Shown one piece after another: positions 1-60,109 of a stretch of DNA of 64,000 nt. Position 1 is the first letter of the stretch. The number at the start of each line of letters is the position of its first letter. Both the position numbers and the translations under genes were made by a program. A model generated the notes under the pieces. That model saw only the letters and a list, made by a program, of their open reading frames with translations. It ran no database searches and was not told where the DNA came from. Source of the stretch: a virus (taxonomy: Duplodnaviria; Caudoviricetes); the IMG/VR virus record IMGVR_UViG_3300037400_003961, positions 32,001-96,000 of that record. One strand, written 5' to 3'.

Positions 1-549
1 ACTATTCCAACTAAAACAAGTGATCTTACAAATGATTCTGATTTTATGTCAGGAATGACAATTTTAGCTTACGGTAAGAGTACATGGGCGGACTTCCTTA
101 CAGCATACACTGCAAAGCATGTTGTGTATTGCCGCGCCTCTTCTGCAGCTAACCCCGCAAGTGGTTCACAGACCAGAATGGCATTTATGGCTTATGTCAA
201 CAATGAGACAAATCCCACTAATGTTGAATTCCAATATTACCGTTCTGTTAATGCTCACAGTGCAACACAGCAGGGCGATCAGGTGTATGTTTATAAATTA
301 GATAAAAATGCGGGATGGACTGTTACGGTTCGTGAGAGCTATACGAAAATTGTTGCTGGAACAAATATGTCCTCATCGTATAGTAATGGGGCGCTGACGC
401 TTAATTTCAACGGCACTATTCCTTCAGATGCAGAAGATGTTGGGGCAATTGCTGCTCCATCATCTGCAAATTCTGGAGATTTTCTTGTTTATAATGGCAC
501 GGCTTGGGTGGCACAGTCTATGAGTACATGGCAAGGAGGAAATTACTGA
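1..549 (+). CDS. Tail fibre/structural protein, C-terminal part (5'-truncated by window)
   Basis: Frame 1 is open from base 1 (TIPTKTSDLTNDSDF...) to TGA at 547-549. KTSDLTNDS repeats are typical of phage tail fibre proteins. Confidence 0.55.
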   Translation, partial: TIPTKTSDLTNDSDFMSGMTILAYGKSTWADFLTAYTAKHVVYCRASSAANPASGSQTRMAFMAYVNNETNPTNVEFQYYRSVNAHSATQQGDQVYVYKLDKNAGWTVTVRESYTKIVAGTNMSSSYSNGALTLNFNGTIPSDAEDVGAIAAPSSANSGDFLVYNGTAWVAQSMSTWQGGNY

Positions 550-1853
550 TGGCGGTTGATAAATTAGTAGATAGCGCTCAACTTGATGCAGATTTAACAT
601 CTGTTGCTAATGCGATAAGGACTAAGGGCGGTACATCCGCCCAGTTGTCCTTTCCTTCTGGATTTGTTTCTGCAGTTAATGCGATTCCAACTGGAGGGAG
701 TATTACTATAGATAATATTGCACAAAAAAATATTAGTGGATCTATTAGTGGTAATATAAGTTCTATTTTAAGTTATGCATTTCAAAGCTATACTCAAATT
801 ACAGAAGTAAATTTTCCAAATGTTACATCTATAGGTCAAGGGGCTTTTATAGGATGTACATCTTTATCTTAGGTAAGTTTTCCGGAAACAACAAGTATAG
901 GTTCTAATGCATTTAAAAATTGTACTTCTTTATTTTCTATAAGTTTTCCAAAAGTTGTTTCAATTAATACAAGTACATTTGAAGACTGTACTTCTTTATT
1001 TTCGGTAAATTTTTCAGAAGCTACTTTTATTGATTGGTATGCATTTAGAAGATGCAATCATTTGGTTAGAGCAGATTTTCCAAAAGCTGTATCTATTTCT
1101 AGTAATGCATTTAGTAGTTGTGCCTCTTTATCTTAGATAAATTTTCCAAATGTTACATCTATAGGTCAAGGGGCTTTTGCAGGATGTACATCTTTATCTT
1201 AGGTAAGTTTTCCGGAAGCAATAAGTATAGATCATGGAGCTTTCTCAGGATGTACTTCTTTATTTTCTATAAATTTTCCAAAGGTGGAAACTCTTGGAAT
1301 GTATGCATTTCGTGATTGTAAAAATTTATTTGAAGTAAATTTTTCACTTGTTTCAAATATTGCCTATGCTTTTATGGGATGCACTTCTTTAACAAATGCA
1401 TATTTTTCTAATGTAACTGTAATTGGACAACAGACTTTTTCTAATTGTAGATATTTAAAAAATATTAGTTTCCCTAATGTTACCACAGTTAGTTTAGGTG
1501 CATTTTATAATTGTTCAAATCTTGAATCAATAAATTTACCAAAAGTAAAAAATATTTATTCTAATGCTTTTTAGTTATGTACAAATTTATCAATAGCAAG
1601 TTTTTCATAGCTTGCATCATTTTGGTATTCTAATGCATTTGCTCGTTGTTATCGTTTATTATCTTTGTATTTATTGGGATCTTCAGTTGCAAAAATAAAT
1701 GCTTCAACTGTATTTACCTCTACTCCAATAGCGGGATATACGGATTATACCGAAGGAGTATTTGGAAGTATATATGTTCCCGCAAGTTTATATAATTCAT
1801 ATAAAACTTCAACTACATGGTCATGGTTTTCTCAACGTTTTGTATCTGTTTAA
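549..1853 (+). CDS. BspA/LRR_5-type leucine-rich repeat protein, 434 aa, read through TAG
   Basis: ATG at 549 overlaps the upstream TGA. Track ORFs 504, 1284 and 1665 share a frame and are separated only by TAG. Repeats of the form xxFPxVTSIGxxAFxGCTSL. Confidence 0.85.
808..1230 (+). repeat. About 90-bp near-identical direct repeat inside the LRR gene (808-900 and 1138-1230)
   Basis: taaattttccaaatgttacatctataggtcaaggggctttt..aggatgtacatctttatcttaggtaagttttccggaa occurs twice, 330 nt apart. Confidence 0.9.
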
Positions 1854-13811: not shown

Positions 13812-14639
13812 TTACAGGTTCGATAAAGGATATGATAAAGAATTATCTTTAAAAGTTTCACCAATTTTTATTCTTCTAACAGTTTCTTCAGAAGAATTAA
13901 CTATTTTTGCAATTTCTTTATTACTTTTATTTGTTGTTAATAATAATTCTTTTATTTTATCTGCTCTAAATTCATTTGCAGATTTTTTTCTTATAGGATA
14001 TGTTGGATATAAACCTTTTCTAAGTGTTCCTGCATTTATTTTTTTTACTGTTGAATATCCTATTCCTAATATCTATGATATTCTTTTTAATGATAAATCA
14101 GAATTTAATAATAAATCAATTAAATCATCATAATCATCATTACTTTTATAATATTTATATAATGGATAAGTTTCATTTTCATCATAAAAATAAATTCCAT
14201 TATTTATTGAAGAAATAAAAGATGATGAAATACAAAAATATTTTTCAATTTCATAATAAGAGATACCTTGTTTTATCCAATTTTTTAACATTTTCAATTC
14301 ATCATCACTTAATATTGAACTATATCCGCGGCGACCGCCACCTAAATCCATATTGTAACCGATTCCATTACCACAATAAGTATTTAATTCTTTAATCCAA
14401 TATTGTTCTCTTTTATTTACTTCATTTATATTATCTGTATATAAAATTTCTAATAAAGAAATTTCAAAATTTTCTTCTCCATATTCTCTAATTTTTTTAT
14501 GAATTAGATCATTATATGAAGTGGCTTTTGGATTAAAAGCGCAGGAACGATGCTATCTAATCCTTCTTTTATAATTATTCGTTTGTCCAACATATTTATG
14601 TTGATTAATTTTATTTGTATAACAGTAAATATAATACAT
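13812..14639 (-). CDS. Intron-encoded GIY-YIG homing endonuclease, 275 aa (at least 2 TAG)
   Basis: MYYIYCYTNKINQHKYVGQTNNYKRRIR*H...REQYWI...GYN; own RBS AAGGAG. Confidence 0.85.
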
Positions 14640-14782: not shown

Positions 14783-14843
14783 AAAAATTTTTAAGTACCC
14801 CGCTGATAAACGGAAAAGTGTTTAGGGGCAAGTTTCTTCGTTC

Positions 14844-17355
14844 ACCCCATCTGAGGACCAACACCGCATTCCCAAATATATTTACCAAGTGCTGGGCTTG
14901 ATGCTTTATTTAATACTTGTTGATGTAATTCAGGAATTTTTGCCATTTGTTTTTTACCAACAATTTTTCTTGCGGCATTTGCTTCTTTAAGCGTAAAACC
15001 ACAAATCTTTTCATCCATCAACATTCGCATTAACTGCTCCTGAGAAGGTGGCACTCCATAAGATTGCTTAAAATATGGTTCAACAGCTTTTTGTTCTTCT
15101 TTTGTTAAACCAGCTTTATCCATTTCTTGATACCATAAAGATAAATTATTCTTATAACGAATATATTTTTCCATTGGAGTTTCTGCACCTTTTTCCGCAG
15201 TCATAAGACGCATTAATCCATTGGCATCAGACATCTCAAGAATATTAGTTGGTTTAATTTTTTTAGCAGCTTGAGAACCAACTTCTGAATCAAACTGAAA
15301 AACATTTAATACACTATTTTCTTGCAACGCTTTCCATATATTCTTATCATCAAGTGGAAGAACTTCTGGATGAAAATATTTATTATAAACTTCTCTTAAA
15401 GTTAAATTACTATCAATTTTATTATATTTTTGAAGAAGCCTTATTCCTTCAACAAACTTATCTTGGACTTCTGTTACCAAGAAATCATACTTTGTCATGC
15501 CGCAAGCTTCACATTTATGAAGATCCCATTGTGTTATAATTTCACCTTTTGGAGTTTTCATAAAACATCCAAATTCATATGGATCTTCATCAAAAAGGAT
15601 AACTCCACTTGCATGACTAGAACGTTTATTTATAATTCCTTCTATTGCCATTGCAATATCTAAAAGACCAGGATATTGATTTATTTCTGTAATAAAAGGA
15701 GTAATAGGTTTTCTATCTTTATCCACATTCCCATATACAACATCTTTAAGCGGCCAGAGAAATCCTCTTTCACTTGGGATTAATGAAGATAAAAATTGAG
15801 CTGTATCTACGTCTATTCCGTCTGGAAAATCTTCTGAACGATAACCGCGGCAAGCGGTTAATACAGCAGATTTAGTTCCTTCCGTACCAAAGGTCGCAAT
15901 TAATGTACAACCAAGATTTTTTCTACTTAAATCATCAATGTCTACATTAAAATTTTGACCTCTTTCTTCTTTTATTTTTTGAAGAATTAAAGGACGTTTT
16001 GATGGACAGAGATCTAAATCTATATCGCCCAATTCAACACGTTCTTTGTTTAAATATCTCCAGAATGGAAGATCCCATTTAATTGGATCCAACTGGGTTA
16101 TACCTAAAAGATAATGATTTAAACCTGAACAAGATGAGCCTCTACCCGCACCAACTGTACTTCCACATTCCCAAAAGAGATCGACATAATGCTGAAGAGT
16201 AATTGGATAACTAAACATATTAGTTTCAAGTTTTTCACTAATAGTTTTTTTAATATCCGCTTCCTCTTCTAATCGAGAAAGATATTGATGATTATCTTTA
16301 TTAAGTTGTTTAAGTTTAATTAAACATTCATTTACCCAATATCGTTCATATTTATCTTTAGATATTTTCATATTATATAAATTTGGATATTGAGATAAGC
16401 TTTTATCTTCATATGGAATATAATCTTTAACTTCTACTTTTGGGATAGTTTGTTTATGTGCAATACTATAATTTTCAATTTTATTATAAATTTCATATGA
16501 ATTATTTACTAATTCATCATAATCTAATTCAGATGGAACAATATTTTCTTTTATATCATTTTCATCTTGAAGATATGTATATTCATAGAATGCATCAACT
16601 TCACGCTCTCCACCCTTTGAATTAAGATATGCTTTATGAACAAATCTATCTTCTTTTTTAAGATAATGAGCATCTGAACCAAGAACCATTTTACATCCAA
16701 ATGCGGCAGCTACAGATTTAAGACGTTTATTAACCGCAATCTGTTCGTTTGATTGACCCGGCGCACATTCAATATAAAAATCTTCACCAAAAAGTTTTTT
16801 ACACCATAAAATAAATCTTACAATATCATTATGAATTTCAGTAATGCTATTTGTATCATTGTGTTTTTCAGCTTTAATAAGATTTAAAACTTGTGAAGAT
16901 AGTTCTCCGCCAAGACAAGCAGTTGTTACAATCAAACTATTTGGATACTTATTAACAATTTCTTCAAGTTCATCATAAATTGTTGGAACTCTTTCAAGAC
17001 CTCTGTCCCAATAACTATTCATCCATGCTCTTGAAGATAATTCTCTTAATGCTCTAAAACCAGTTTTATTTTTTGCAATCAAAATAAAATGATAATATTT
17101 TTGCCCCATTTCTCTATTAGGCGTTAAGTATATTTCATTACCTAATGCAACTTTAAAATCTGGATATTCTTTTAAAATATCTTGAGCATAAAAATTTGCT
17201 TGTGGTGCTCCAGAAAGACATTCATGATCTGTTAAAGCAATTCCACTAAGTCCAATTTCAATTGCTCTATCAATGAGTGCTGGAATCTTATTAATACAAT
17301 CTAATAATCTTATATTTGAGAACTCTGAATGAGAGTGAGGTTCGAATCTTTTCAT
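14844..17355 (-). CDS. dnaE: DNA polymerase III alpha subunit, exon 1
   Basis: PHP domain (HSHSEFS, LTDH, SDAHY), GAGRGS, DIDLD, SSHASG, KYDFL. No in-frame TAG. Confidence 0.93.
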
Positions 17356-24162: not shown

Positions 24163-24984
24163 TCACTTAATGTTTCCATTAAGGACGACTGTTTCCAAAG
24201 TTTTAAAAATGTTATATTTTCTATCTAAATGAATATTTACACTATTATAAAGCTATTTCATAATTAAGTAGGGTTTGTTAATTCCACCACATCGAATAAA
24301 ATAATTATTAGAATTATCTTGCTTTCTTTTTTCTAAATGTGATGATATATTTAATATCGAATTTATCCATTCTAATATTTCTTTTGTACCTTCTATTGAT
24401 ATTCCGAAAGATTTTTGATTAGTTTTAAAAATAGAACCATCTCCATCAAAATATCCTAAAATAAAAGGTAAATAAAATTTTGAATCAATTTTTGGAGGCT
24501 AAAGAATTAAACTTTTTTTAGGAACTATTCCTACATTGCTTAAATCCTTAGATAGCTTTTTACTATTTAATATAATTTTACACATAGGTGTATTATTTGA
24601 AAAACCTTGATTTTGTATAAATGTTTTTACCTATGCATTTGTATTCATAAAATTTTGAAATTTATATAAATGCTATATATCTTTTTGGTGTATATTTATT
24701 ATAACTGAAGCATTTTCAGCTCTTGAATAATTACATCCATCTGCCGCCAAAAACCCTAACCAATATGCTTTTTCAGCAGAATCTATTTTCTAAAATTTAT
24801 CGTAATCTCCAAAATATTTTCTATTAGTATGATTTAATTCAATATTATTTTCTTTTAAAACTCTACTTATTACTGTTTTAGAAACATTATATTTAGTTCC
24901 TAACTATCTTGTTGAAATATTATTAATTACATAATCATTAATAATATTATTTATTTGCTATTGTGTAAAAATAATTTTTTTCAT
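24163..24984 (-). CDS. Intron-encoded LAGLIDADG homing endonuclease, 273 aa (7 TAG)
   Basis: AYWLGFLAADG and FILGYFDGDG motifs, N-terminal HTH, RBS AAGGAG. Invisible in the code-11 track. Confidence 0.88.
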
Positions 24985-30694: not shown

Positions 30695-31612
30695 TTAACT
30701 ATTACCTTTCACTGTATTTAATCCAAATTTATTGCTTTGATACATCTATATCCAAAATTTTTCTTTTTCATTCAACATATCTTTTGAACACTATTCTAAT
30801 AATTCAAAACTAAAATTCCATACTCCATCTTTTTGCATAGAATTATATAGTTTATTAGTTGCGGAGGCTTCAATGCCCAAACCGCATTTACAATGTTGTT
30901 TCCATCTATCACTAATATTAACACTTTGTCCAATATAACATTGTTCAGTTAATAAATTAGTAATTTTATAAATTCCGCAAACTGTTTTTTTACCTAAAAC
31001 TCTATCACATAATTCTGTCATTTGTTTTTGAAAATATTGAGTCCATATAAGTTTACTTAAAACAACAGGTTTATGAAAAGAAGCTTTTAAATTTTCTAAC
31101 ATTTTTACATCAGATAAATCAGCATCATTGATAGATAATTTATAAAATCCTATTTTATCTTTCTTCTATTGTTCGCGGAGACGTGCCTATACACCCGCAC
31201 TTAATGAAGCTTTTAATTTATTAATTTCATTTTGAATATTTTGTTTTTCAACTTCAGCATTATTTTGAAAACATTGTACATTATATTTTATATTTTCAAT
31301 TTGCTCTTGAGCAGATTGATTTGTTTTATTAATAGCTTGTTTTGCAAGCTATTCTTGACTTTCTAAATATGTTTCAATTTCTTTTTTACGAGACTCTTGA
31401 AACTATAATAATTCTTTATTTAGTTCTTTTTTCTTTTCATTTTCTGAATGAATTAAATTATTTATATTAATTTGTAAAATATTTAATTCTTTTTGTAATT
31501 GTTCTCTATACTATTCTTGTTGTTCATTTTTATTAATTTTAATTTGATTAGCTTTATAAAAAAGAATTATTCCACATATTAGAAAAATAAAAGCTAATAT
31601 TAATGATGTCAT
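30695..31612 (-). CDS. Membrane-anchored coiled-coil protein with C-terminal GIY-YIG domain, 305 aa (multiple TAG)
   Basis: N-terminal TM helix (LILAFIFLICGIILFY), E/K/Q-rich coil, then CGIYKITN...YIGQS..ISDRWKQH...FELLE*C...EKFWI. Confidence 0.75.
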
Positions 31613-37521: not shown

Positions 37522-38235
37522 TCAAATATTAATCCATTTCTTTTCTTTCTTTTTATAAATAGGAAGTGTTGAATAACTTCTTCCCCAAAGCATAGCTTGA
37601 AATGTTTGATAGGATACTCGATTTTTATAATCTTCATAAATTTGTTTGGCGGTTTCATTTACATATCTATGTCGAAGTTGAATAACCTCTTCATTGGTAA
37701 ATTGAGCTGAAGCTCCATTTCCGCCTTGTGAATTTTGATAAATATAATATTGTTTATTTGCTTCTGTAAAAACTTCTGGCATAATATACGACCAAGACCT
37801 GCCTTGCCAAAGATTTTGAAAATAACCAAAAGAAATTTTATTTTCAAATTCTTTGTACACATCTTTTTGGCGCTAATGATTGGCATATGCTTGTCTAATT
37901 CTAATAACATCCTTTTCTGTTAATTTAACATTAGGATTATGACTTCCAATCAAATCTGTTAATCCGCCTTCATTTTTATTACCAGATTTTGTAGCATTTA
38001 ATTTATTTATCCAATATTTTTCTTTATCATTTAATTCATCTATAGAACATACTTCTAATACTTCAAATAAAAAAGCATCTTTTCCTTTATTAGTTATCTA
38101 ATCATCAAAAGGAATACGTGATTGTTTTGATGTTTTATATATATGTTCTTTAAATCTTCTATCTATATCATTTGATTGTCCAACATAAAAATTTGTTGGA
38201 TCGTTTTTTTCTGTAATTTTATAAATTCCTATCAT
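37522..38235 (-). CDS. Intron-encoded GIY-YIG homing endonuclease, 237 aa (2 TAG)
   Basis: MIGIYKITEK...FYVGQSNDIDRRFKEH...EKYWI; own RBS GAGGAG. Confidence 0.88.
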
Positions 38236-46466: not shown

Positions 46467-49400
46467 ATGGCAAATGAGATTAGGTATCAAGTTGGCTTTG
46501 ATGTAAAGCAAGGCGACTTGAGTAAATTAAAATCTTCATTACAATAGCTTCAAAAGTTAAAATTTAGTGATATAATGAAGATTAATAATACAGATATATC
46601 TTCTGCTAGAGATGCATTAAGATCTATCCAACAAGATGCAGATAAAGTTGAAAATGCATTAAATAAAGCATTTAATACTAAATTAAATACAGTTAATATT
46701 TCAACTTTTAATTCATAGTTATCAAAGTCTGGATTATCTTTACAGTCAATTTATCAATCTTTTAGTAGAGCAGGAGCCACAGGTGAAGCAGCTTTTAGAA
46801 ATTTATCTACTCAATTATTAAGTACAAATATTCAATTAAGATAGAGTCATGCTTTACTTGATAAGATGGCAACAACTCTTGCTAATACTATTAAATGGAA
46901 TATTGCTTCTGGTGCGGTTAATAGCATGTCTCGTGCAGTTGAACAAGCTTGGGGATATACTAAATCATTAGATACTTCATTAAATAATATTCGTATAGTT
47001 ACTGGTAAATCTGCTGAAGAAATGGATAAATTTGCGTTAAAAGCAAATGAAGCTGCTCAAAGTTTAGGCAAAACTACAACAGATTATACTAATGCTGCAT
47101 TAATTTATGCTCAACAGGGTCTTTCTGACCAAGAGATAGAAGAAAGAGCAAGAATTACTTTAATGACAGCTAATGTTACTGGGCAATCTACATCAGATGT
47201 TTCTGAGGAATTAACTGCTGTTTGGAATGGTTATAAAGTAAATGCGGAAGAAGCAGAGCTTTATATTGATAGACTTGCTGCGGTTGCTGCTACAACAGCA
47301 TCAGACCTTGAGGAATTAAGTACTGGTATGAGTAAGGTTGCAAGTGCGGCCGCCGCAATGGGGGTTGGTGAAGACCAATTAGCTGCACAATTATCAACTA
47401 TTATATCCGTTACCCGCCAAGCGCCAGAATCAGTTGGTACTGCATTAAGAACTGTATATGCACGTATTTCTGATATTAAAGCTGGTATTGATGAAGATGG
47501 TGTTACTCTTGGTAATTATTCTGGTAAAATGGCAGAATTAGGATTTAATGTTCTTGATGCTGCAGGTAATCTTCGTGATATGGGCGAAGTTATGGAGGAG
47601 ATTGGTGGTCGTTGGCAAGATTTAACCAGAGAACAGCAGATTTCTCTTGCACAAACAATGGCTGGTCAAAGACAGTATTCTAATTTAATTGCTTTATTTG
47701 ATAATTTTGAAAAATATAATCAAGCATTAAATACTGCCCAAAATGCGGCAGGTACTTTACAAGAACAGCAAGATATATATATGGAATCAACTGCTGCCCA
47801 TTTACAAACTTTAAAGGCTGCTATTGAAAATATATATGATAGTTTAGCTGATACAGATGGTATTAATAGTATAGTAGATGGTCTTACCGTTGCTGCTAAT
47901 TTAGTGGCTAATTTTGTTGATGGAATTGGCGGTGGTGCTAATGTATTAAAATCATTGGGTGCTATTGGTTTAACTGTATTTAGTCAACAAATTGCATCAG
48001 GGTTAACTACTACAATAAATAATCTTGAAAGAGCAAGAAATCAAGCTGAATATTTTAAAAATGCAATAAAAGAAGCTGAAGATATTCAAAAACAAGGACG
48101 GGGAAATGATTATACTCAATTTTTAGTTGAATAGCAATAGTCTTTATTAAATCTTGGTGGTAAATTATCTGTTAATGATTTTAACGCTTTTCAATAGAAG
48201 TTAAAACAATTAAGTGATAATTCTGGTAATATAGAAATCTTAGAAGAAAAAATATTATCATTAGGAAATGATTTTGATTCTTTAGGTGGTTATATTTATA
48301 GATTTTCTGAATAGTATGGTACTCTTGATGAAATGTTGAGCAGTGCAACTGGGGTTGAAATTATAAATGATGCTTTACAAAATTTAAGTAAAAGTTTTGA
48401 ACCAGTTGTTGAAAAACAAAAATAGGTTAGACAAGCTTTCAGAAAATTTTATACTGATATTTAGACAGGATCTAAAGATGCTCCACAGAGTTTTGATAAT
48501 TTAAAGAATAAATTACAAGATTTAATTGTAACTTTAAAAGATGTAAAAGTTGAAGAGGATGGCACAACATTATTTAGCATTTTACCTAAAGAAGCTCAAA
48601 AAGCTGTTGAAGAAACATCAAAAAAATTAAAAACTTTAGATTTTTCTAAAATTGGTAATCCAAAAGAAGCTTATAACCAAATTCATGCTATTTTTTCAGA
48701 ATTAAATAATACCATTTCTCAAGAAATTGAAAAAGTAAAAAGGTTAATTAGTACCACTACAGATGGAGGATAGATTTAGAAATATAAGCAACAATTAGAA
48801 AGCTTACATGCTCTTCAAAAACAATTTGAAGCTGATTATAATGCAATGAAAGAAAGAGCGGAAAGAAATGTTGCTATACAAAATATGGTTGAATTAGCTG
48901 GTGGAATTACTAGATTAGGTTCAGCTATACAACAAGTTCAAAATCTTGGAAGTATTTGGAAAAATTAGGATTTATCTGGTGGTTAGAAGTTTATTAAAAT
49001 AATTACTGGGGCAACTTTCGCTCTTCCTATGTTGGGATCTGGTTTAAAAACAGTTACAACTAGTTTAGGATTAGTTACTATAGCTACAACAAAAGAGGAA
49101 GTTGCACAAGTTGGTGCCACTATTGCAAGTAGTGCCCATGCAGTATCTTTGGGTGGATTAAGCATGGCTGCAACAAAAGCTGGTATTCAAATTCAATTTC
49201 TTAATACCGCATTAACTATTAGTCCAGTTGCAATCGCGGCTGCTGCAATAATAGGTTTAGCAGTTGCATATGATAAATTTACAATGTCAGCCAAATAGGC
49301 TGAACAAGCTTTATCTAATTTTAATAATAAACAAGCTGAATTAACAAAAAATATTTCTTCTACTCAAAATGAAATTAAAGATTTACAAGCATTAAAAGAA

Positions 49401-52400
49401 GAATATGATTCTTTATCTAATATAGTTGGAAAGTATGATCAAAATATTGATGCTCTTTCTAATAAAGAAAAAGAAAGATGGGAATAGATTAAACAGAAAA
49501 TTGTTGATATTAATCCAGATATTCTTACTGCTTATGACGATCAGCATCAAAGAATTATAATAAAAAATGATGCACTTGATGAAACCATTGGAAAATTATA
49601 GAAAATAAATGAATTAGAATTAAAAGAGTTTGTTAATAGTGATGATTTTGATAAAGCTATTGAAGCAGTAAAAGTAAAATCTAAAAATGCTGATAAAAAT
49701 TTAGCAATAGAAAATGCAAATTATATTTCTTTAGGTCAAGACTCAATAAAAAATCTAAAGAGTGATACAATAAATTCTATTATTGATATAGGTTTATCAA
49801 GTAATGATAAAGAATTACATAAACAAATTTAGCAATTTAGAGATATTAGTGAAAAAAATATTAAAGATTTAACAGATATAGATGTACAAACATTTAATAA
49901 ACTTTTAAATATTTTTACTAATTCAAATAACAAAAATTTACAAAGATTAGCTAAAAGTCATGCAGATGAATTATCTGCTTCTATTGATTCATATATAAAT
50001 GAATTTGAAAAAGCTGGAGGAAGGTTAAAAGCTGCAGAAGAAGCTGCAGAAGAAGCCGCCAATGGAAATCCAGCCATGTTGGTTCAAGCATTAACTCAAG
50101 ACTATGAATATAAACAATCTTATGAAGATTTAAAAAAAGCTGGTTTTGAAAATGCTGAAGCTATTTTAGCTGCTTGGGCAGAAGGCAATAAAGAAGGAAA
50201 AGCTAAAGATTGGAATAAGTATCTTGATTAGGGTAAAACATTTACAAAAGATTTAACAACTATTATAAAAGCTTCTCCTGAATTAATGTCTGAAATTAAA
50301 GCTGAGAGTGAAAAATTCAAACAAATGACTTTTGAAACAGAGCAGTAGAGAGTTAATTATGCTGTAGATGTTTTCAATAAAATAATAAAAGATAATAAAA
50401 TACAAAATGCCCAAAAAGATGTTGTAAGTGCATTATTAAATTTTGATTTTGGAACTAATTTAAGTTAGCAAAATTTTGATAAAACTGGGTTTGTAAAATC
50501 TCTTAGTGATTCTGCTATTACGACTATTGATGATGTTAGTAAATATATTAGTCATGTAACTAAAGAAAATCAAAAAGGAATATTTGATCAACTTCTTCAT
50601 ATGGATACTCAAGGAGTTAGTTGGGATAATATTCTTAAAGGAATTGATGAAGCTGCTTTAAAAACTGGTAAATGGGATGAATATATTAAACAAGTAATTG
50701 CTGACCAGCAAGTTGTTCAATAGCAACAAAATAATATAGCTTCTTTATCTGTTATTTCTCAAAGCGGTGAAAAACTTCAATCTGGTAAAAATTTAACTAA
50801 AAAAGAAAATTAGGCATATCAAAATAATCTTAATAGTGTTATTGAATCTGCTCAAAAAATTAATGACCAAGATTTATTAAAATCTGCTTAGTTATTACAA
50901 AAAACTTGGTTAGCTGGTTCTGAAGAATATCAACAGGCATTAGATAAAGTTCTTCAAAAAACAATTGAATTAAAAGCAGAACAAGCAAAACAAGAAAATA
51001 GAGCTTTTACCGATGAATAGATTGAGGATATTGAAAAATATGCTAATACAGTAGAAAGAGTAAATGAACTTTATCAAAAAGGAACAATAAAAGATGAAGT
51101 TCATTATCATGCTTTATTAGATAAAGTAATAAGAGATCAATTAAAAACTTTAAAAGTATCTGGTTCTGCTTATCAAAATTATGTAAAACAATTAAATAAA
51201 ATTAGTAAAGAAACAGAACAAGTAATTGATGGAGTGGATTAGTTTAATTAGTCTATTAATTTATCTGAAGAGTCTCTTTAGGAAATGGCATTAAATGATT
51301 TAAAATTAATAGATTCTCTACAAAAATTACAAAAAGCTTTTAAAAATTATAAAGATGATTTAAATAGTGAAGATCAAAGTTCACCTGACTTTATTAAAGC
51401 ATATTCTTAGGTTTTAGAAATAATTAATAATATACCTGGTATTTATATTGATCCAACAAAAGAAAATGCAACTGAATATTTAACAAATATTAAATAGTTA
51501 GCAGAAGGTGTTTAGGGCGCATTAGGAAGATTAAGACAAAAAATTGCTTTAGATGAAATGAAAGTAATGATTGATGTTGGTCTTGAAGATGCTTGGGAGC
51601 AACAATTGCTTCAAGAAATTAATGATAAAATTGCTCAAATGACACCTAAAGATATTGAAACTCATGCTTATTTATATGATCCAGAATTTATTAATAAATT
51701 AAATGGTCTCATGAGAGGCTCTTAGAAAGCTAGAGATTATTGTAATAAAATTTTAGGATCAATTGGAGCAAAAGCAAAAGTTCAATATGAAACCATTACT
51801 TTTAAAACAAGATCTGGTTCAGCTGGAGATTTTCATAGACTTGATAATGGAACTATTACATCTTCTAATGATTCAGTTACAACTGTGCAATATCCCCATA
51901 TTATTACATATTAGCCTTTTAGTAGTAATGAAAAGGCTGATGAAATAGTAAGTTCTTCTGGCGGAAAAGGCGGCGGAGGTGGTGGAGGCGGAGGTGGAAA
52001 AGAATCCAAACCTGATACCTCCCAAAAAGAAACTAAAGAACCTTTAAAAGAATAGATAGACCTTTATCATGATATTAATATTGAACTTGGTGATTTAAAT
52101 AGGCAATTAGAAAATACCAAAAAGAAACAAGATAAATTATATGGTAAAGATTTAATTAATAATCTTAATTAGCAAAATGGTATTCTTGATAAACAAATTG
52201 GTAAGTTAGAAGAAAAATATCAATTACAAAAACAAGACCAAACACAAAAACAAGAATAGTTAAAAAATTTAGGTGTTGTTTTTGATGAATATGGTAAAAT
52301 TGCTAATTATATGGATTTACTTAAAATAAAGTAGACTGAAATTAATGAATTAATTAAACAATATAATGAATTAATTAAACAATATAATTAGACTACAGAT

Positions 52401-55052
52401 GAAACTCGTAAGAAAGAACTTAATCAACAACTTTCTGAATTAGATAAAAAAATTAAGCATGAATAGGAAAAACTGAAAAATCTTCATAAGGGCATGGATG
52501 ACTATGATAAACTCATGGATGACATGTAGGAAAATGAAGATGAAAGAGAAGCTAAAAGACAAGAACAATTTGAAAATAATATTAAAAAATTTAGAACTGA
52601 TATTGAAATACATCTTGAAATGGGTGAAGCTGAAAGAGAATGGAATAATTTTAGAAGAAACGTTCTTAATCATTCAGACGTCTTAAAAGAATCTGATTTT
52701 GATAAATTATTAAAGGACGCCGCCCAAAATTATCAAGATGTTCTTTCTTATTTTGATATTAATGGTCAAATGGGAACTTTAGAAGCTTTGACTAATCAAC
52801 TTCTTGCAACCCAAGATGAATTAGATGAGATTAATGGTGGCGGAGAATCATCTATTTATGGGGACAATAAAAAACAAGCCATGTAGGATCTTAAAACAGA
52901 TCTTAATGAATTAATGCAACAAATGCAAGATGTTGAAAGTTTAATTGATAGTATTGATGAAGCTTATCTTAATACTATTGATGATATTATGGATCAATTT
53001 GATAAACAGATTAATGATTATAAATTAATTGGCGAACTTATTGAACATGATATGGATCTTTTATCTTTACTTTATGGAGATAAAAATTATGATGCAATGG
53101 ATAAATATTATTCAACATTGCGTGATAATAATTTACAACAGCTTGACTCATTAAAACAACAGAGAGATTTCTGGAAACAAGAATGGGATGAAGCGGTTGC
53201 CCGCGGAGATTCTGAAGCTGCTAAGAAATTTGAAGAACATTATAAAGATACTATTGGTAATTTGAATTCATTAATTGAGGAATCCGCATAGAACTTACTA
53301 AATAAATATGTTAATGCTATTGATGGAATATTTGATGCATTAGATAAAAAGATTAGTAATGGATTAGGAACTGATTATTTATCTGCTGAATGGTAGTTAA
53401 TGAGAAAAAATGCAGATGAATATTTAGACACTATTAATTCTGCTTTTGCTTTACAAGATTTAGAGAATAAATTTAATGATGCTCTTAATGATACTAAAAA
53501 TTTAAAAGCACAGCAAGCTATTAAAACTTTAATGGATGCACAACTTGAGAATTTAAGAACTAAAGAAAAATTAACTCAATATGATGTTGAAAGAGCTGAA
53601 AAGTTATTACAAATTGAACAGGCTAGAATAGCATTGGAAGATGCACAAGCTAGTAAAACATCTATGCGGTTAAAGAGAGACTCTCAAGGTAATTATTCAT
53701 ATGAATACGTTGCTGACCAAGGAGATATTGCTGAAGCTGAGCAAGGGCTTGCCACAGCACAAAATGACCTTTATAATTTTGATAAAGATAGATACCAGTC
53801 TAATTTAGATGATATGCTTTCTGCATGGCAAGAATTCCAAGAGCGATATAAGGAAATAGTTACAGATGTTTCTTTATCAGAAGAAGAACGAGTTGCTAAT
53901 CTTGCTTTATTAAGAGAACAATATGGTCAATATATTAATGATAAAACTGCGGAGAATCTTGTTGTCAGAACAAATCTGATGGAATCTGCTTTTGCAGATA
54001 TTGCCGCCATATATGATACAGATGTTGAGAATTATAATCAGATGGCGGATAATGAGAAAAATATCTTAATGGGTGATTTAGTCCCTGCTTGGTAGAGCGG
54101 AATTCAGCAAATGGCAGATAAAATTGCTGGATAGGGCGGCTTTATTCCAACCTGTGAAGAGGCTTTTGAAAATATCACTGAGGCAACAGAAGATTACAAA
54201 GACGAGCTTGATGATATGGCACGTGTCGCAGGAATGAGTTTAGATGATGTTAAATAGGGTGTTGATGTTTTAACTGATTCTTTTGGTAATTTAGTTGAGA
54301 AAAATGATGATTTACTTGATAGAATGAGTCAAGAATTAACTTCTATTGAAAGTTTAAAAGATGCTGCTCGTGGCTTAAAAGAACAATATGATGATGTTTA
54401 TAAAGCTGCAAAGAGGGCGGCTTCCGCAATTCATGAAACTCTTCAAGATACAAGAGCAGATGCTATTGAAAATGATTTAGATGAAGATGATGACAATTGG
54501 TATGATGATTTTTCTAATCGCGGTCCAGGAGTGAGTTCTGAAAAAACTATTTCATTTATTAATGATAAGCCAACTTTTCTTTTTGATGATACATCAGGTC
54601 AGATTAGCGATGATGATGTTTTTAAAAATACTACTCTTACTAATGCACCTGGTTTAAAAAATGACAATATTAATCCAGATTTAATGGATTGGCTTAAAAA
54701 GCAGGGGGTAAAAGGATTAGCTACAGGAGGATATACTGGTTCTTGGTCCGATGTAGATGGAAGAATTGGTATTTTACATCAAAAAGAATTAGTATTAAAT
54801 CCAGGTGATACTACAAATCTTTTAAATTCAGTTGAAATTTTAAGGTCTATGATGAGTTCTCTTGATGGTAGTTTATTTGCAAGAGCAGATAATATTAAAT
54901 CTGGATTCTACAATACTTCTACTGATGAAGATGGTTTGGAACAAAATGTTCATATTGATGCTTCATTCCCAAATGTTAATAGCAAGAGAGAAATAGAAGA
55001 AGCACTCAGTGATTTAGTTAATTTAGCAGCTCAAAGAGCAATGCGTAGATAA
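46467..55052 (+). CDS. Tail tape measure protein (TP901-type core), 2861 aa, dozens of in-frame TAG
   Basis: Track fragments at 46866, 49029, 52620, 52914, 53400 and 54324 share one frame, separated by TAG. TMP core (GTALRTVYARI), TM segments, C-terminal ATGGYTG...LHQKELVLN. Confidence 0.9.
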
Positions 55053-55376: not shown

Positions 55377-58300
55377 ATGAGCGTACAAGATAAGATTTTA
55401 GACGCTATTGAATTATTAGCAGATAGTTCTGTTAAAAAAGCAGGATATGATAGAACTATTCAAGCTCAAATCCTTTCATGCGAAGATGCTACAATAGGCA
55501 AATATAGATGTCGTTATCAAGATGCAACTATATATGCGTATGCGGGCACCGCAGATATAACATATACCAAAGGTGCATATGTTTATGTGCTAGTTCCAAG
55601 CGGAGATATGAATAAAGAAAAAACAATTCTTGGAACTACTAAAAAACTTGGTATTAATTATATTTCACAAGCTGAGGGGGATTAGGCATATGATGTTATT
55701 GGTAATAATTGTATAACTTCTAATAATACTTTTTATTTAGATACTAAAAATAAAAATTATAAGTATACAATATATAGATATAATACTGGTGATATTACTT
55801 TAGATAATACCGCATTAAATGAATATATTAAGCAATCCTCTTCTTTGATTGTTGGCGGAATATTTAAAACAAATATTGTTCCATAGAAACAATTTAGAGG
55901 ACATTATGGAATTACATTCAATCTTCGTTTTTTAGATAATACATCTAATCAACAAGTTATTAGGTCGTATACTATTGATGAAGATAATATGATTGATAAT
56001 CCATATAGATTAATATATGGCACAAGACAGTATTAGATTTTTGATATTGATGGTGCAAATTTTGTTAGAGTTGAATCAATTTAGATTTTTAATCAAGATT
56101 TTCCTGGAGCAACTCAAACAACTACTGGTACAAAATTATCAAGTGGTGATATAGAAATTTCTGCCATATAGTTAAATGGTGCAGTTAGGATGACAGAAAG
56201 TGAGATAAATGGTGTAGCAATATCATTTTATACACCTCAAGGAACTTTTTTCACAGACCAATCAAGTGCAAATAGTTATAAAACAATAACCGCCCAAGTT
56301 AAAATAAAAGGTAAATTAGCATCTGCCGCACAAAATATTTCTTTCTATTGGGGAAATGAAAATGTTGGAATTACTCCAAAAAATCAATATTATAATAAAT
56401 ATCTTGGTAGAGGTTGGAAATGTTTAAATGAAAGTAATTTGACAGTTGAGGGAAATGCAGATAATGATCCAGTTTATACTTGGATACCAGGTAAAGATAC
56501 TTATATTGTAAAAATTTCTGAAGCTACAGCAAGAGATAATCGTTTTAAAGTTTCAATTTTATATGATGGAACTGTTGTTAGTAAAATAATAGATATTAAG
56601 AATTTGGCAGCAAGTGCGCCTTAGATAACAATAAATTCCAGTGATGGTATAAAATTTTATTATGATATAGGACATCCAACTTTAACTTGTAAAGTTAATG
56701 GTGGTGAGCCTAGTAATTATCATTATTATTGGGGGGTATAGTCTGATACTGGTATTTTTGAAAATTTATCAGAGACAACAGAACAAAATGCTGCATATAA
56801 TACTGCTTATAATAATTATAATAATTTAAAAAATGCAATTGCCGCGGGGACTAAATTTGCTAATGCTGAAGCTAATAATTTAAATAATTATGAAGAAGCA
56901 TTAAAAGCATTTAATTTTATTCAAAGAGTTAAAGGTAATAAAATTTATGACGTACAAATAAGTAATATTACTAATTTAGCTATTTTTAAATGTTCTGTTT
57001 ATAATAATCAAAATATTTATTTAGGAACTGCCGCAATTACATTAACTAATTCCTTAAATGGAGAAGACCTCTATTCTCTTGTTATAAATAATGGGTCTGC
57101 AGTATTTCAATATAATGAATATGGTGTTGCGCCTAATAATAGAAGTCTTGATATACAACAACAAATTCAAGCATTAAGTTTTACTATATATGATAATTTA
57201 GGTAATGCTATTGATAATAATATAATAAGAAATTCAAGAGATTGTAAAATTCGTTGGCAATTTCCTATAAAAGACACTTTATTAGTTGATGATGCGGATA
57301 ATGGACAAAGTGCTGGTACTGATCCTACACAAAGTTATAAATATTATGATAATCTTGTTAATTTAATTTATAATATTGCTCAAAGATATGATATAAAGAA
57401 ACAAGTTAATCAAATTAAATTAACAGTTGATTATAAAGGAATGAATTTAACTGCGGAAACTTAGTTTACTTTTGCTAAACAAGGCGAACCTGGTACTAAT
57501 GGTACTGAATATTTAGTTAAATTAATTCCTAATACTAGAATGAGTGATCCACCAACTTTTCCAATGGTTACAAAAGCTGGAACTGATTATATTTTAAATT
57601 ATGGTTTAAATTCAACAGCAAAAGAAACTACAATTGGATTATCTACTGGCTACCAATTATTTAAAGCTCAGTTATGGCATAGCGGAGAACTGGTTTGGGA
57701 AGGTTTTAATGCATCAACTGCCGCGATAGACGGTATTACTAAACCTAATGTTGTTTATTGGGAGATTCTTGCTAATAAATATAATAGTTCTATATCTGAT
57801 AACTCTGCTTTTGAAATAACAAATGCTTCAAATGGAAATATTAAATATTTAGGTGATCATTTAGCAACAGCCCTAAACACTCCTTTAGCTAATATTATTA
57901 AATGTAGTATTACATATGAAGGAAAAACGTATTATGGAACTATTCCTATTACAACAGCATGGACATATAATAGCAATTTTAGAGTTTCTTTGGCTGATTA
58001 TACTGGCTTTAGATATGTTATATATTCACCAGATGGTACTTCTCCTCAATATGATAATTCTCATCCTTTTGAATTTATATGTTAGGAAAAAATTAATAAT
58101 GTATGGGAAGATGTTTCATTAGTTGCGGGTAGTCATGCAATTAGTTATACACCTAGTTATTGTGGGAATGTAAAAAGAAATAGAAATGGAGATTTAGTTA
58201 ATTCATAGTTATTAATGTTATTAAATAATAATATTTATCGAAATGGATTAAATAAAAATCAATGGAGATATAAACCGGATTCTAAATATGATGGTGAATG

Positions 58301-59357
58301 TGTTAATAATGCAATTACTTGTATATATACACAAAATGGAACTATAGTTGGAAGGTTAAGTATTCCTATTCATTTTTTATTAAATCGTTATGGTTTAGCA
58401 AGCATTAATGCTTGGGATGGAAATAGTATTCAAATAAATGAATAGGGTGGATATATTTTAGCTCCTCAGATGGGAGCTGGTGTAAAAGATAATAATAATA
58501 GATTTACTGGCGTTATTATGGGGGCTGTTAAACAAAATAATGCTAATACTGTTACTTATAATGGATTATTAGGGTTTTCACAAGGTATTATTAGTATTTA
58601 TTTAGATGCAGATACTGGTTCTGCGACTTTTGGTAGACCAGGATAGGGACAAATAAAATTGATTCCAGGTGGAACTTCAACTATAGCTGGATGGAAAATT
58701 AATTCAGACTCATTATCAAGTAATGATAACAAAAGTATTTTATATGCTGATGAAAGTCATATATAGGATAATAAATCATTAAGATTTAATATTAATAATT
58801 TATTTAAAGTATATTCTAATGGTCATATAAAAGCTACTGCTGGTACAATAGGTGGATGGACAATTGAAACAGATTCATTACATACTACTGGAAAAAATAC
58901 TTATGGAAATTCTAGCGCGGGGGCTTTTTTAGGTTCAAATGGATATTTTGATTTTACATCTTCTTCTAATAATTATTTAAGATATAATGGAGATAGTTTT
59001 TCTATAAATATTGGAAGGAATAATTTTTTTAATATTACAAAAAATGATATTAAATTAGGTAATTTTATTATTAATGATAATTATGGTAGAAATATTTTAG
59101 GTAATAGTGATAGTGATCCCTCTATGGCAATTTCTTCAGATTTAACAGATTCAGATGAATGGTGGATGTGGTTTAGTAGTGATGGAGAAGGCGAAAGTGA
59201 TAGTCCAGATGATTATGATTTTGTTTTAAATGGTAATGGGCAAGTATTTGCAAAAGATTTTTTATTACCAGGTTCAAAGTCAATAAGACAATGGTTGGAA
59301 TCTCTTTAGAGAAAAATTGATAGTATTGATGATGGTGAAGATTAGGACGACAATTAA
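55377..59357 (+). CDS. Large tail tip/baseplate protein, 1326 aa (many TAG)
   Basis: Track fragments at 55377, 56190, 57540, 58215 and 59124 share a frame. C-terminal G(T/S)I(A/G)GW(K/T)I beta-repeats typical of tail spikes. Confidence 0.8.
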
Positions 59358-59603: not shown

Positions 59604-59622
59604 AATCTATCCCTGTTTTTTT
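59587..59622. terminator. Bidirectional terminator
   Basis: aaacagggatag/ctatccctgttt stem between convergent genes. Confidence 0.75.
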
Positions 59623-60109
59623 ATTCCCAATTTATCTCATTATTAAATTTTTCATTGTAAGCATCAAATATACATATGGCATCCGCTTCATCATCATTTA
59701 CTGTAATATTATATTTATTTTTTACATACTAAATATCTTGCGATTTAAGGTCATTTCTTTTTATACCTGGTCCTTGTTTAATTTTAAGGGCTGCTCGCCA
59801 CGTAGAAGGACCAATAAAATCCCATTCTATCTTTGGATTGATTTCATATGTTGCCATTGTTATAATTCCTTGTAACCACATTAATATTTTACTAGTATGT
59901 GAACTAAGCTATAGCCGCACCTACTACATGATAATTTTCTATATTTTATTATCTTTAATTATTTTAGATAATTCATCTCTCATTTTTATAATACGTTTCA
60001 TTACATCTTTTGAACTAGCGGTTATATATCCATGTGATATAATAAATTCATTCTAGCCTATACACCAACCAGTACTTTTAGTTGATAAATCTAATGATAA
60101 AATTTTCAT
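59621..60109 (-). CDS. ruvC: RuvC-like Holliday junction resolvase, 162 aa (6 TAG, including the catalytic position)
   Basis: ILSLDLSTKSTGW (D7), KIIM**VR (codons 62-63), PSTWR, NDDEADAICI (D140/D143). Confidence 0.88.

Follow-up and report, generated by a model that had tools for sequence, protein, structure and literature searches.

Which amino acid is inserted at TAG when a phage no longer uses this codon as a stop? The question is raised by a small gene in the window, by which we mean the whole stretch of 64,000 nucleotides analysed here, corresponding to bases 32001-96000 of a 132,737-bp virus record with a G+C content of 31% and a genome completeness of 99% (CheckV). The gene product resembles the Holliday junction resolvase RuvC, and at the position of the catalytic glutamate the DNA reads TAG. 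An initial annotation proposed that TAG encodes glutamate in this phage and not glutamine. Codon alignments with relatives and a tRNA with a CUA anticodon on a glutamate-type body support that proposal. By computation TAG = Glu is strongly supported, and we put the probability that the phage translates TAG as glutamate at about 0.88.

In phages whose code differs from that of the host, only TAG to Gln and TGA to Trp have been observed, a pattern attributed to GlnRS and TrpRS being unusually easy to hijack, while phage recoding to Gly has been described where the host has the same code (Borges et al., 10.1101/2021.08.26.457843). For crAss-like phages TAG = Gln has been confirmed by proteomics (Peters et al., PMC9523058). 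Full-text literature searches gave no case of TAG = Glu in phages or bacteria, the matches meaning glutamine or eukaryotes.

The genome lies near the SPbeta-like and Enterococcus EF1-like phages of Firmicutes, with 31-43% protein identity in the DnaE-type polymerase, the anaerobic ribonucleotide reductase and RuvC. Its DnaE-type polymerase is 42.8% identical to that of Enterococcus phage H1 and 37.7% identical to that of phage phAss-1. No close relative of the genome was found among GenBank phages, the nearest cultured ones being Enterococcus phages with a RuvC that is 31% identical. Almost all close relatives come from metagenome accessions that we take to be from rumen and gut; contigs of the clade from the rumen include Ga0256404/5, Ga0247608-11, Ga0326511-14, AUXO01 and OCVV01.

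TAG as a sense codon

TAG is clearly a sense codon in this genome. With a crude gene call there are about 269 in-frame TAG over the whole genome, and all 167 complete genes called end in TAA (132) or TGA (35), none in TAG. Two late open reading frames run through many TAG without meeting TAA or TGA, and relatives keep both of them. These and the other genes of the window that bear on the distribution of TAG are the following:

46467-55052, plus strand: late open reading frame of 2861 aa with 45 in-frame TAG and no TAA or TGA (open reading frame list with TAG read through)
55377-59357, plus strand: late open reading frame of 1326 aa with 15 in-frame TAG and no TAA or TGA (open reading frame list)
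528-1853, plus strand: BspA-type LRR protein with 5 TAG (Pfam LRR_5, E 2e-60)
14842-17355, minus strand: DnaE-type polymerase, TAG-free, an example from the replication block (open reading frame list)
13812-14639, 24163-24984, 30695-31612 and 37522-38235, all minus strand: four homing-endonuclease-like genes

The codon is concentrated in virion, lysis and late DNA-processing genes (about 250 occurrences), and the replication genes are without it. Altogether 248 TAG are spread over 59 genes, and 48 genes of at least 100 aa are TAG-free, including DnaE, RNR and helicase-size open reading frames. We infer a split in timing, TAG-free genes being early and TAG-bearing genes late. The TAG-free genes contain 7.08 Glu per 100 aa; for the TAG-bearing genes the figure is 5.81 from GAR codons only, rising to 6.97 once TAG is added as Glu. 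Over the whole genome TAG (269) is nearly as common as GAG (347), with GAA at 2104, though the path from GAA to TAG takes two changes via GAG. This suggests that the abundance of TAG in late genes was selected and did not come about by drift.

The four homing-type genes, three of them GIY-YIG and one LAGLIDADG, sit amid the TAG-free replication genes and carry two to seven TAG each. These mobile genes use the phage's own code.

Codon alignments in the resolvase and other genes

By sequence and modelled fold, the gene that raised the question encodes a putative RuvC-like Holliday junction resolvase. Its six TAG codons are listed here with the composition of their columns in the codon alignment described below:

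59621-60109, minus strand: putative RuvC-like Holliday junction resolvase, 162 codons plus stop, six in-frame TAG (translation, PHROG 827, fold)
60053-60055, minus strand: TAG codon 19, variable column (TAG 40, Glu 14, Gln 3, others)
59939-59941, minus strand: TAG codon 57, Asp/Asn/Glu column (Asp 39, Asn 11, TAG 10, Glu 7)
59924-59926, minus strand: TAG codon 62, catalytic Glu position (GAA 51, TAG 24, nothing else; 75 genes)
59921-59923, minus strand: TAG codon 63 (GAA 40, GAG 4, TAG 30, AAT 1)
59909-59911, minus strand: TAG codon 67 (Glu 41, TAG 23, Asp 10, Thr 1)
59729-59731, minus strand: TAG codon 127, variable Gln/Lys/Glu column (Gln 26, TAG 23, Lys 14, Glu 6)

A match of the protein to PHROG 827 (Holliday junction resolvase) has an E value of 1e-20. 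An AlphaFold model, built with TAG as Glu, reached a pLDDT of 89.9, and the 13 best listed PDB matches of this model are all RuvC (TM 0.71-0.76, E down to 6.5e-9), with 7W8D, 4LD0, 6LW3, 4KTW and 1HJR among them. Translation bears out the initial annotation in that D7, D140 and D143 are encoded, and in that the minus strand at 59914-59931 reads ATC ATG TAG TAG GTG CGG, the TAG pair (59921-59926) being codons 62 and 63. In the model the strand formed by residues 58-62 terminates at codon 62. The family profile aligns this column with E66 of E. coli RuvC (1HJR), through a weak sequence match (E 0.55), and E62 is invariant in an alignment of the resolvase family (A2). The protein is predicted to have the RNase H-like fold in common with RuvC of E. 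coli (1HJR), T. thermophilus (4LD0) and Lactococcus phage bIL67 (4KTW), together with acidic positions equivalent to D7, codon 62, D140 and D143. Unlike in those enzymes, the codon for the catalytic Glu is TAG, here and in about a third of the relatives, and the fourth member of the catalytic set would be Glu only if TAG = Glu.

A search of a collection of 5.8 billion proteins gave 120 full-length homologues of the resolvase, of the same length and up to 95% identical. At positions 62/63 these database proteins read EE in 43 cases, QQ in 27, EQ in 26 and QE in 17. Taken on its own this protein alignment is misleading and was set aside, since the mixture of E and Q arises from TAG having been translated as Q: in the DNA the Q is TAG, and one such protein (P0005) is simply the gene of a related locus (L006) with TAG written as Q. 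About a third of these public-collection proteins (P0002-P0121) show Gln at the catalytic Glu position.

We therefore read codons and not residues, using 88 related loci taken with their DNA, from which a codon alignment of 79 RuvC genes was built. Gln at codon 62 in close RuvC homologues, which the initial annotation had named as evidence that would count against it, is not seen; the 75 genes have GAA (51) or TAG (24). Columns 89, 141 and 158 consist of nearly all Glu codons plus 14-28 TAG, and CAA/CAG are absent from columns 62, 63, 89, 141 and 158 throughout the 79-gene alignment. In the same alignment the invariant Gln columns Q80 and Q112 hold no TAG, and column Q124 has CAA 55 times and TAG three times. 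Codon 127 is the sole TAG site of this gene's resolvase that looks more Gln-like. These counts indicate that TAG swaps with GAA/GAG and not with CAA/CAG, even at a catalytic residue.

The same behaviour is found in other genes. All proteins of the genome, with TAG as X, were compared by tblastn with the 88 related loci, and the aligned codons were then read. The genome's TAG faces GAA in 26% of cases, TAG in 17%, GAT in 8%, AAT in 8%, CAA in 7% and GAG in 5%, a profile that matches those of GAA and GAG; CAA instead faces CAA (46%) and CAG (10%). We then considered 11 gene families of the clade, calling a column conserved when at least 90% of its sense codons specify one residue. Tabulation against homologues had been suggested by the initial annotation, and the outcome favours its reading: in conserved columns TAG occurs 224 times opposite Glu (39 of 55 columns) as against 8 times opposite Gln (6 of 48 columns), with 6 for Asp and at most 3 for each of the others. 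TAG is thus about 25 times more often found in conserved Glu than in conserved Gln columns. Fisher's test on the column counts gives p = 1e-9. Because the relatives are akin to one another, counts of codons exaggerate how many independent events there were.

A Codetta-like log-likelihood was computed over the 75 TAG sites of the genome with at least five aligned sense codons. It gave +89.3 nats for Glu, -41.5 for Asp and -51.1 for Gln, with Lys below Asp, and Glu stays at +78 when RuvC is left out. Seven of eight genes individually favour Glu, the remaining one being a small gene (g129) with four columns, which favours Gln. The two long late open reading frames both favour Glu, by +17.7 nats over 21 alignable TAG columns for the one of 2861 aa and by +18.8 nats over 13 such columns for the one of 1326 aa.

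Such proof of TAG = Glu as sequence can give comes from the relatives and not from family consensus. The initial annotation had drawn on TAG in motifs of several protein families, and most of these examples proved uninformative or weak. The TAG sites checked in the GH25 lysin (compared with 30 bacterial loci), and in RecJ and RNase H (compared through PDB alignments), lie in variable columns (Ala/Cys, loops) of distant homologues. Distant standard-code homologues were accordingly given up as a residue test, as TAG sites in variable columns separate nothing. A Pfam search of virion genes outside the window left 9 of 10 proteins without a match, and none was usable for a profile-based Codetta-style test. 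The comparison of repeats within the LRR protein, where TAG had been aligned with GAA of sister repeats, is literally true but weak as evidence: the column holds TAG three times, GAA twice, Ser four times and Asn once, and was dropped as too variable.

The tRNA with the CUA anticodon

None of the 23 tRNAs that ARAGORN identified in the genome lies in the window, and a single one has the anticodon CUA. It sits about 28 kb past the right end of the window:

124239-124314 of the whole genome, minus strand: tRNA(CUA) (ARAGORN; RF00005, 60 bits)

The order of genes is tRNA-Glu(UUC), 4 nt, tRNA-Met, 6 nt, tRNA(CUA). The acceptor stem GGCCCGG/UCGGGUC is formed by G1-C72, G2-U71, C3-G70, C4-G69, C5-G68, G6-C67 and G7-U66; the discriminator is C73, and the gene does not encode the CCA end. 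When prokaryote genomes, one for each species, were scanned for tRNAs whose T loop and six acceptor pairs agree with those of tRNA(CUA), at least 120 were obtained, and the 120 matches listed comprise 90 Glu (77 UUC, 13 CUC), 15 Ala, 7 Asp and no Gln. Among some 500 bacterial tRNAs covering every isotype, tRNA-Glu was the best match to tRNA(CUA), both at full length and with the acceptor trimmed, and Asp came second; Gln is absent from the ten best matches and stands near the bottom (best Gln 15 vs Glu 34). The first 29 nt of tRNA(CUA) agree with those of a bacterial tRNA-Glu at 26 positions, and a two-base insertion in the D loop is common to tRNA(CUA) and the neighbouring tRNA-Glu(UUC).

Like tRNA-Glu (UUC/CUC) of Bacillota, tRNA(CUA) has the acceptor GGCCCG/CGGGUC including G2-U71, a three-pair D stem and the D loop GAGCGGUUUAA. 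It is unlike them in its CUA anticodon, its discriminator C and the absence of an encoded CCA. The discriminator is A in 93 of 120 bacterial tRNA-Glu cases among the matches listed, and the variable loop has 5 nt in tRNA(CUA) as against 4 in tRNA-Glu. Work on E. coli and B. subtilis has established U1-A72, G2-C71, G3-C70 and G73 as identity elements of tRNA-Gln. All four occur in the tRNA-Gln(UUG) of the phage itself and none in tRNA(CUA). The latter is 99-100% identical in two relatives, as against 83% and 94% for their RuvC. Judged from these sequence features, the tRNA has a Glu-type body and is the descendant of a Firmicute-type tRNA-Glu.

The initial annotation had pointed to a CUA tRNA, an aminoacyl-tRNA synthetase and a release factor as things to look for. 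The tRNA was found, with its Glu-type body and without Gln identity elements; neither a GluRS/GlnRS catalytic domain nor a class-1 release factor (RF-1) domain was found in the genome, which is 99% complete. In the 88 related loci, there is no suppressor tRNA within 10 kb of RuvC.

Another Glu-type CUA tRNA, distinct from this one, is present in a separate IMG/VR record (IMGVR_UViG_3300021426_000107; positions 2101-2174 of locus L218). Its discriminator is A and its variable loop has 4 nt; the tRNAs closest to it, with few differences, are tRNA-Glu(CUC) of Clostridia. This suggests repeated origin or diversification of Glu-type amber suppressors. In three relatives (L214, 1252-1326; L215, 543-617; L219, 3445-3519) a tRNA-Glu-like gene that is absent from this genome adjoins the CUA tRNA. 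Its anticodon loop is CUAUCAC, which ARAGORN reports as '(atca)', and it has either the anticodon AUC or an irregular loop.

Decoding, alternatives and significance

We propose that the host glutamyl-tRNA synthetase charges tRNA(CUA) with Glu. As no GluRS/GlnRS domain is present in the genome, charging must fall to an enzyme of the host, GluRS being the simplest candidate. Since the tRNA is without the acceptor-end features used by GlnRS and GatCAB, Glu should stay Glu. Accumulation of tRNA(CUA) would then allow the TAG codons of virion, lysis and late DNA-processing genes to be read through, and the TAG-free replication genes would be translatable before that. In the resolvase, TAG TAG would become Glu62-Glu63, restoring the catalytic set D7/E62/D140/D143. 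It is in this way that we infer the charging enzyme, the purity of decoding and its timing. The route envisaged in the initial annotation, a non-discriminating GluRS combined with escape from GatCAB, is possible and may not be needed.

A mixed decoding, in which tRNA(CUA) would carry mainly Glu but at least 20% Gln through mischarging by GlnRS or partial amidation, is the alternative that survives best, and we consider it unlikely; a minor share of Gln is conceivable, though nothing in the data calls for it. TAG is slightly more frequent than expected from GAR codons at conserved Gln, Lys and Asp positions; for Gln columns there are 8 TAG where about 2.6 are expected at the 90% threshold, and 26 where about 5.7 are expected at 80%, which amounts to a three- to four-fold excess. 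Columns with a Gln plurality make up 8 of 75 under TAG and 14 of 312 under GAA (p = 0.05). Whole-genome pairwise comparisons with the closest relatives count TAG exchanges with CAA/CAG and with GAR at 29 vs 68 (G001) and 12 vs 23 (G002), about one for every two. GlnRS of E. coli tends to mischarge tRNAs with a CUA anticodon, and genes with a GlnRS-type C-terminal domain occur in 6 of 10 sampled Firmicute genomes; in the control search such a domain was found in E. coli and not in laboratory B. subtilis. Against this, a like excess of TAG over GAR is found for Asp when the threshold is 90% and for Lys when it is 80%, and because of this we ascribe the Gln-column excess to mutation feeding TAG into tolerant sites. 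A single mutation separates TAG from CAG and AAG, and mutation from them accounts for the excess in Gln, Lys and Asp columns equally well. Moreover, TAG is tolerated at the catalytic Glu in 24 of 75 RuvC genes, and tRNA(CUA) is without the U1-A72, G2-C71, G3-C70 and G73 of tRNA-Gln.

The standard phage code 15, under which TAG = Gln and the RuvC-like protein either tolerates Gln62 or is inactive, appears very improbable, as the codon alignments contradict it. It has been assigned in print to all TAG-recoded phages, the related phAss-1 (PMC10607447) among them, and database translations of the homologues do show Q at TAG sites. As set out above, that Q is TAG in the DNA (P0005 against L006). 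Conserved Glu columns with TAG never contain CAA/CAG, conserved Gln columns are nearly free of TAG, the log-likelihood stands at -51 nats for Gln and +89 for Glu, and tRNA(CUA) is not Gln-like. That TAG should stand for some other residue such as Asp or Lys, in favour of which the acceptor-trimmed core of tRNA(CUA) is nearly as close to tRNA-Asp as to tRNA-Glu, or be a true stop amid gene fragments or pseudogenes, is scarcely credible, given the negative log-likelihood for Asp with Lys lower still, an acceptor stem that is of Glu type in 90 and of Asp type in 7 of the 120 bacterial tRNAs among the matches listed, and two long reading frames with 45 and 15 TAG that are conserved in relatives.

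With TAG = Glu as the preferred reading, the phage can be set beside known systems. Like the code-15 gut phages (crAss-like, Lak, Garnet/Topaz), it has sense TAG mainly in late, virion and lysis genes with early genes free of it, and it has its own tRNA(CUA), no dedicated synthetase and a host presumed to use the standard code. It differs in that their TAG aligns with Gln, whereas here TAG falls in Glu columns and the tRNA derives from tRNA-Glu. The nuclear code of peritrich ciliates (NCBI table 30, TAA/TAG = Glu) gives TAG the same meaning; that code is, however, eukaryotic and genome-wide, with TAA also reassigned, and involves no conflict between virus and host codes and no temporal split between gene classes.

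A further comparison is with phAss-1 (OQ749652), a 136-kb human-gut phage that NCBI places in a 'Caudoviricetes code 15 clade' and for which its authors assign Gln (PMC10607447). The two share a similar genome size, TAG in virion genes, a large tRNA set including CUA, and kinship to Enterococcus phage EF1. None of the three CUA tRNAs of phAss-1 has the Glu-type GGCCCG/CGGGUC acceptor of this phage, and one of them starts with UGGGG and has discriminator G, as in tRNA-Gln. When TAG of phAss-1 is scored against this clade no residue stands out, the best score being negative, with conserved columns numbering 4-6 for Gln and 1-2 for Glu. We lean towards the view that one broad lineage, comprising relatives of SPbeta, EF1 and phAss-1, has reassigned TAG more than once, to different residues, by mutation of tRNA anticodons, and that, as part of the same scenario, it was a tRNA-Glu that mutated here and Gln-type tRNAs that did so in phAss-1. 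If this is true, the meaning of a recoded stop is set by the phage's own tRNA, and relatives may differ. In that case the reading TAG = Gln would be mistaken for a whole group of Firmicute phages from gut and rumen, whose proteins in the databases would be mistranslated.

A clade with TAG = Glu would break the rule of TAG to Gln and TGA to Trp with a code unreported for any virus or bacterium, and would mean that GluRS too can be recruited for phage recoding. Gene callers and databases apply code 15 and put Gln where the DNA has TAG, even at the active site of the resolvase; as a consequence of TAG = Glu, the translations available for this clade in public databases are in systematic error. 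Since Glu and Gln differ in mass by 0.98 Da, annotation, structure prediction and metaproteomic searches would all be distorted. A natural amber suppressor tRNA that inserts Glu may also be of help in genetic-code engineering.

Two unusual tRNA structures were seen in the course of these comparisons. In phAss-1, a suppressor tRNA of 88-91 nt (Sup-CTA; L267, 12445-12532, corresponding to OQ749652 62442-62532) has an insertion after the anticodon stem, which is either a long variable arm or an intron, and the three suppressors of that phage have three unrelated bodies. In the present genome, outside the window, a tRNA of 86 nt with anticodon UUU (Lys; 116855-116940, minus strand; L004) has a long, stem-forming variable arm. 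Such an arm is unusual for tRNA-Lys and could be an intron, a misprediction or the mark of another odd decoder.
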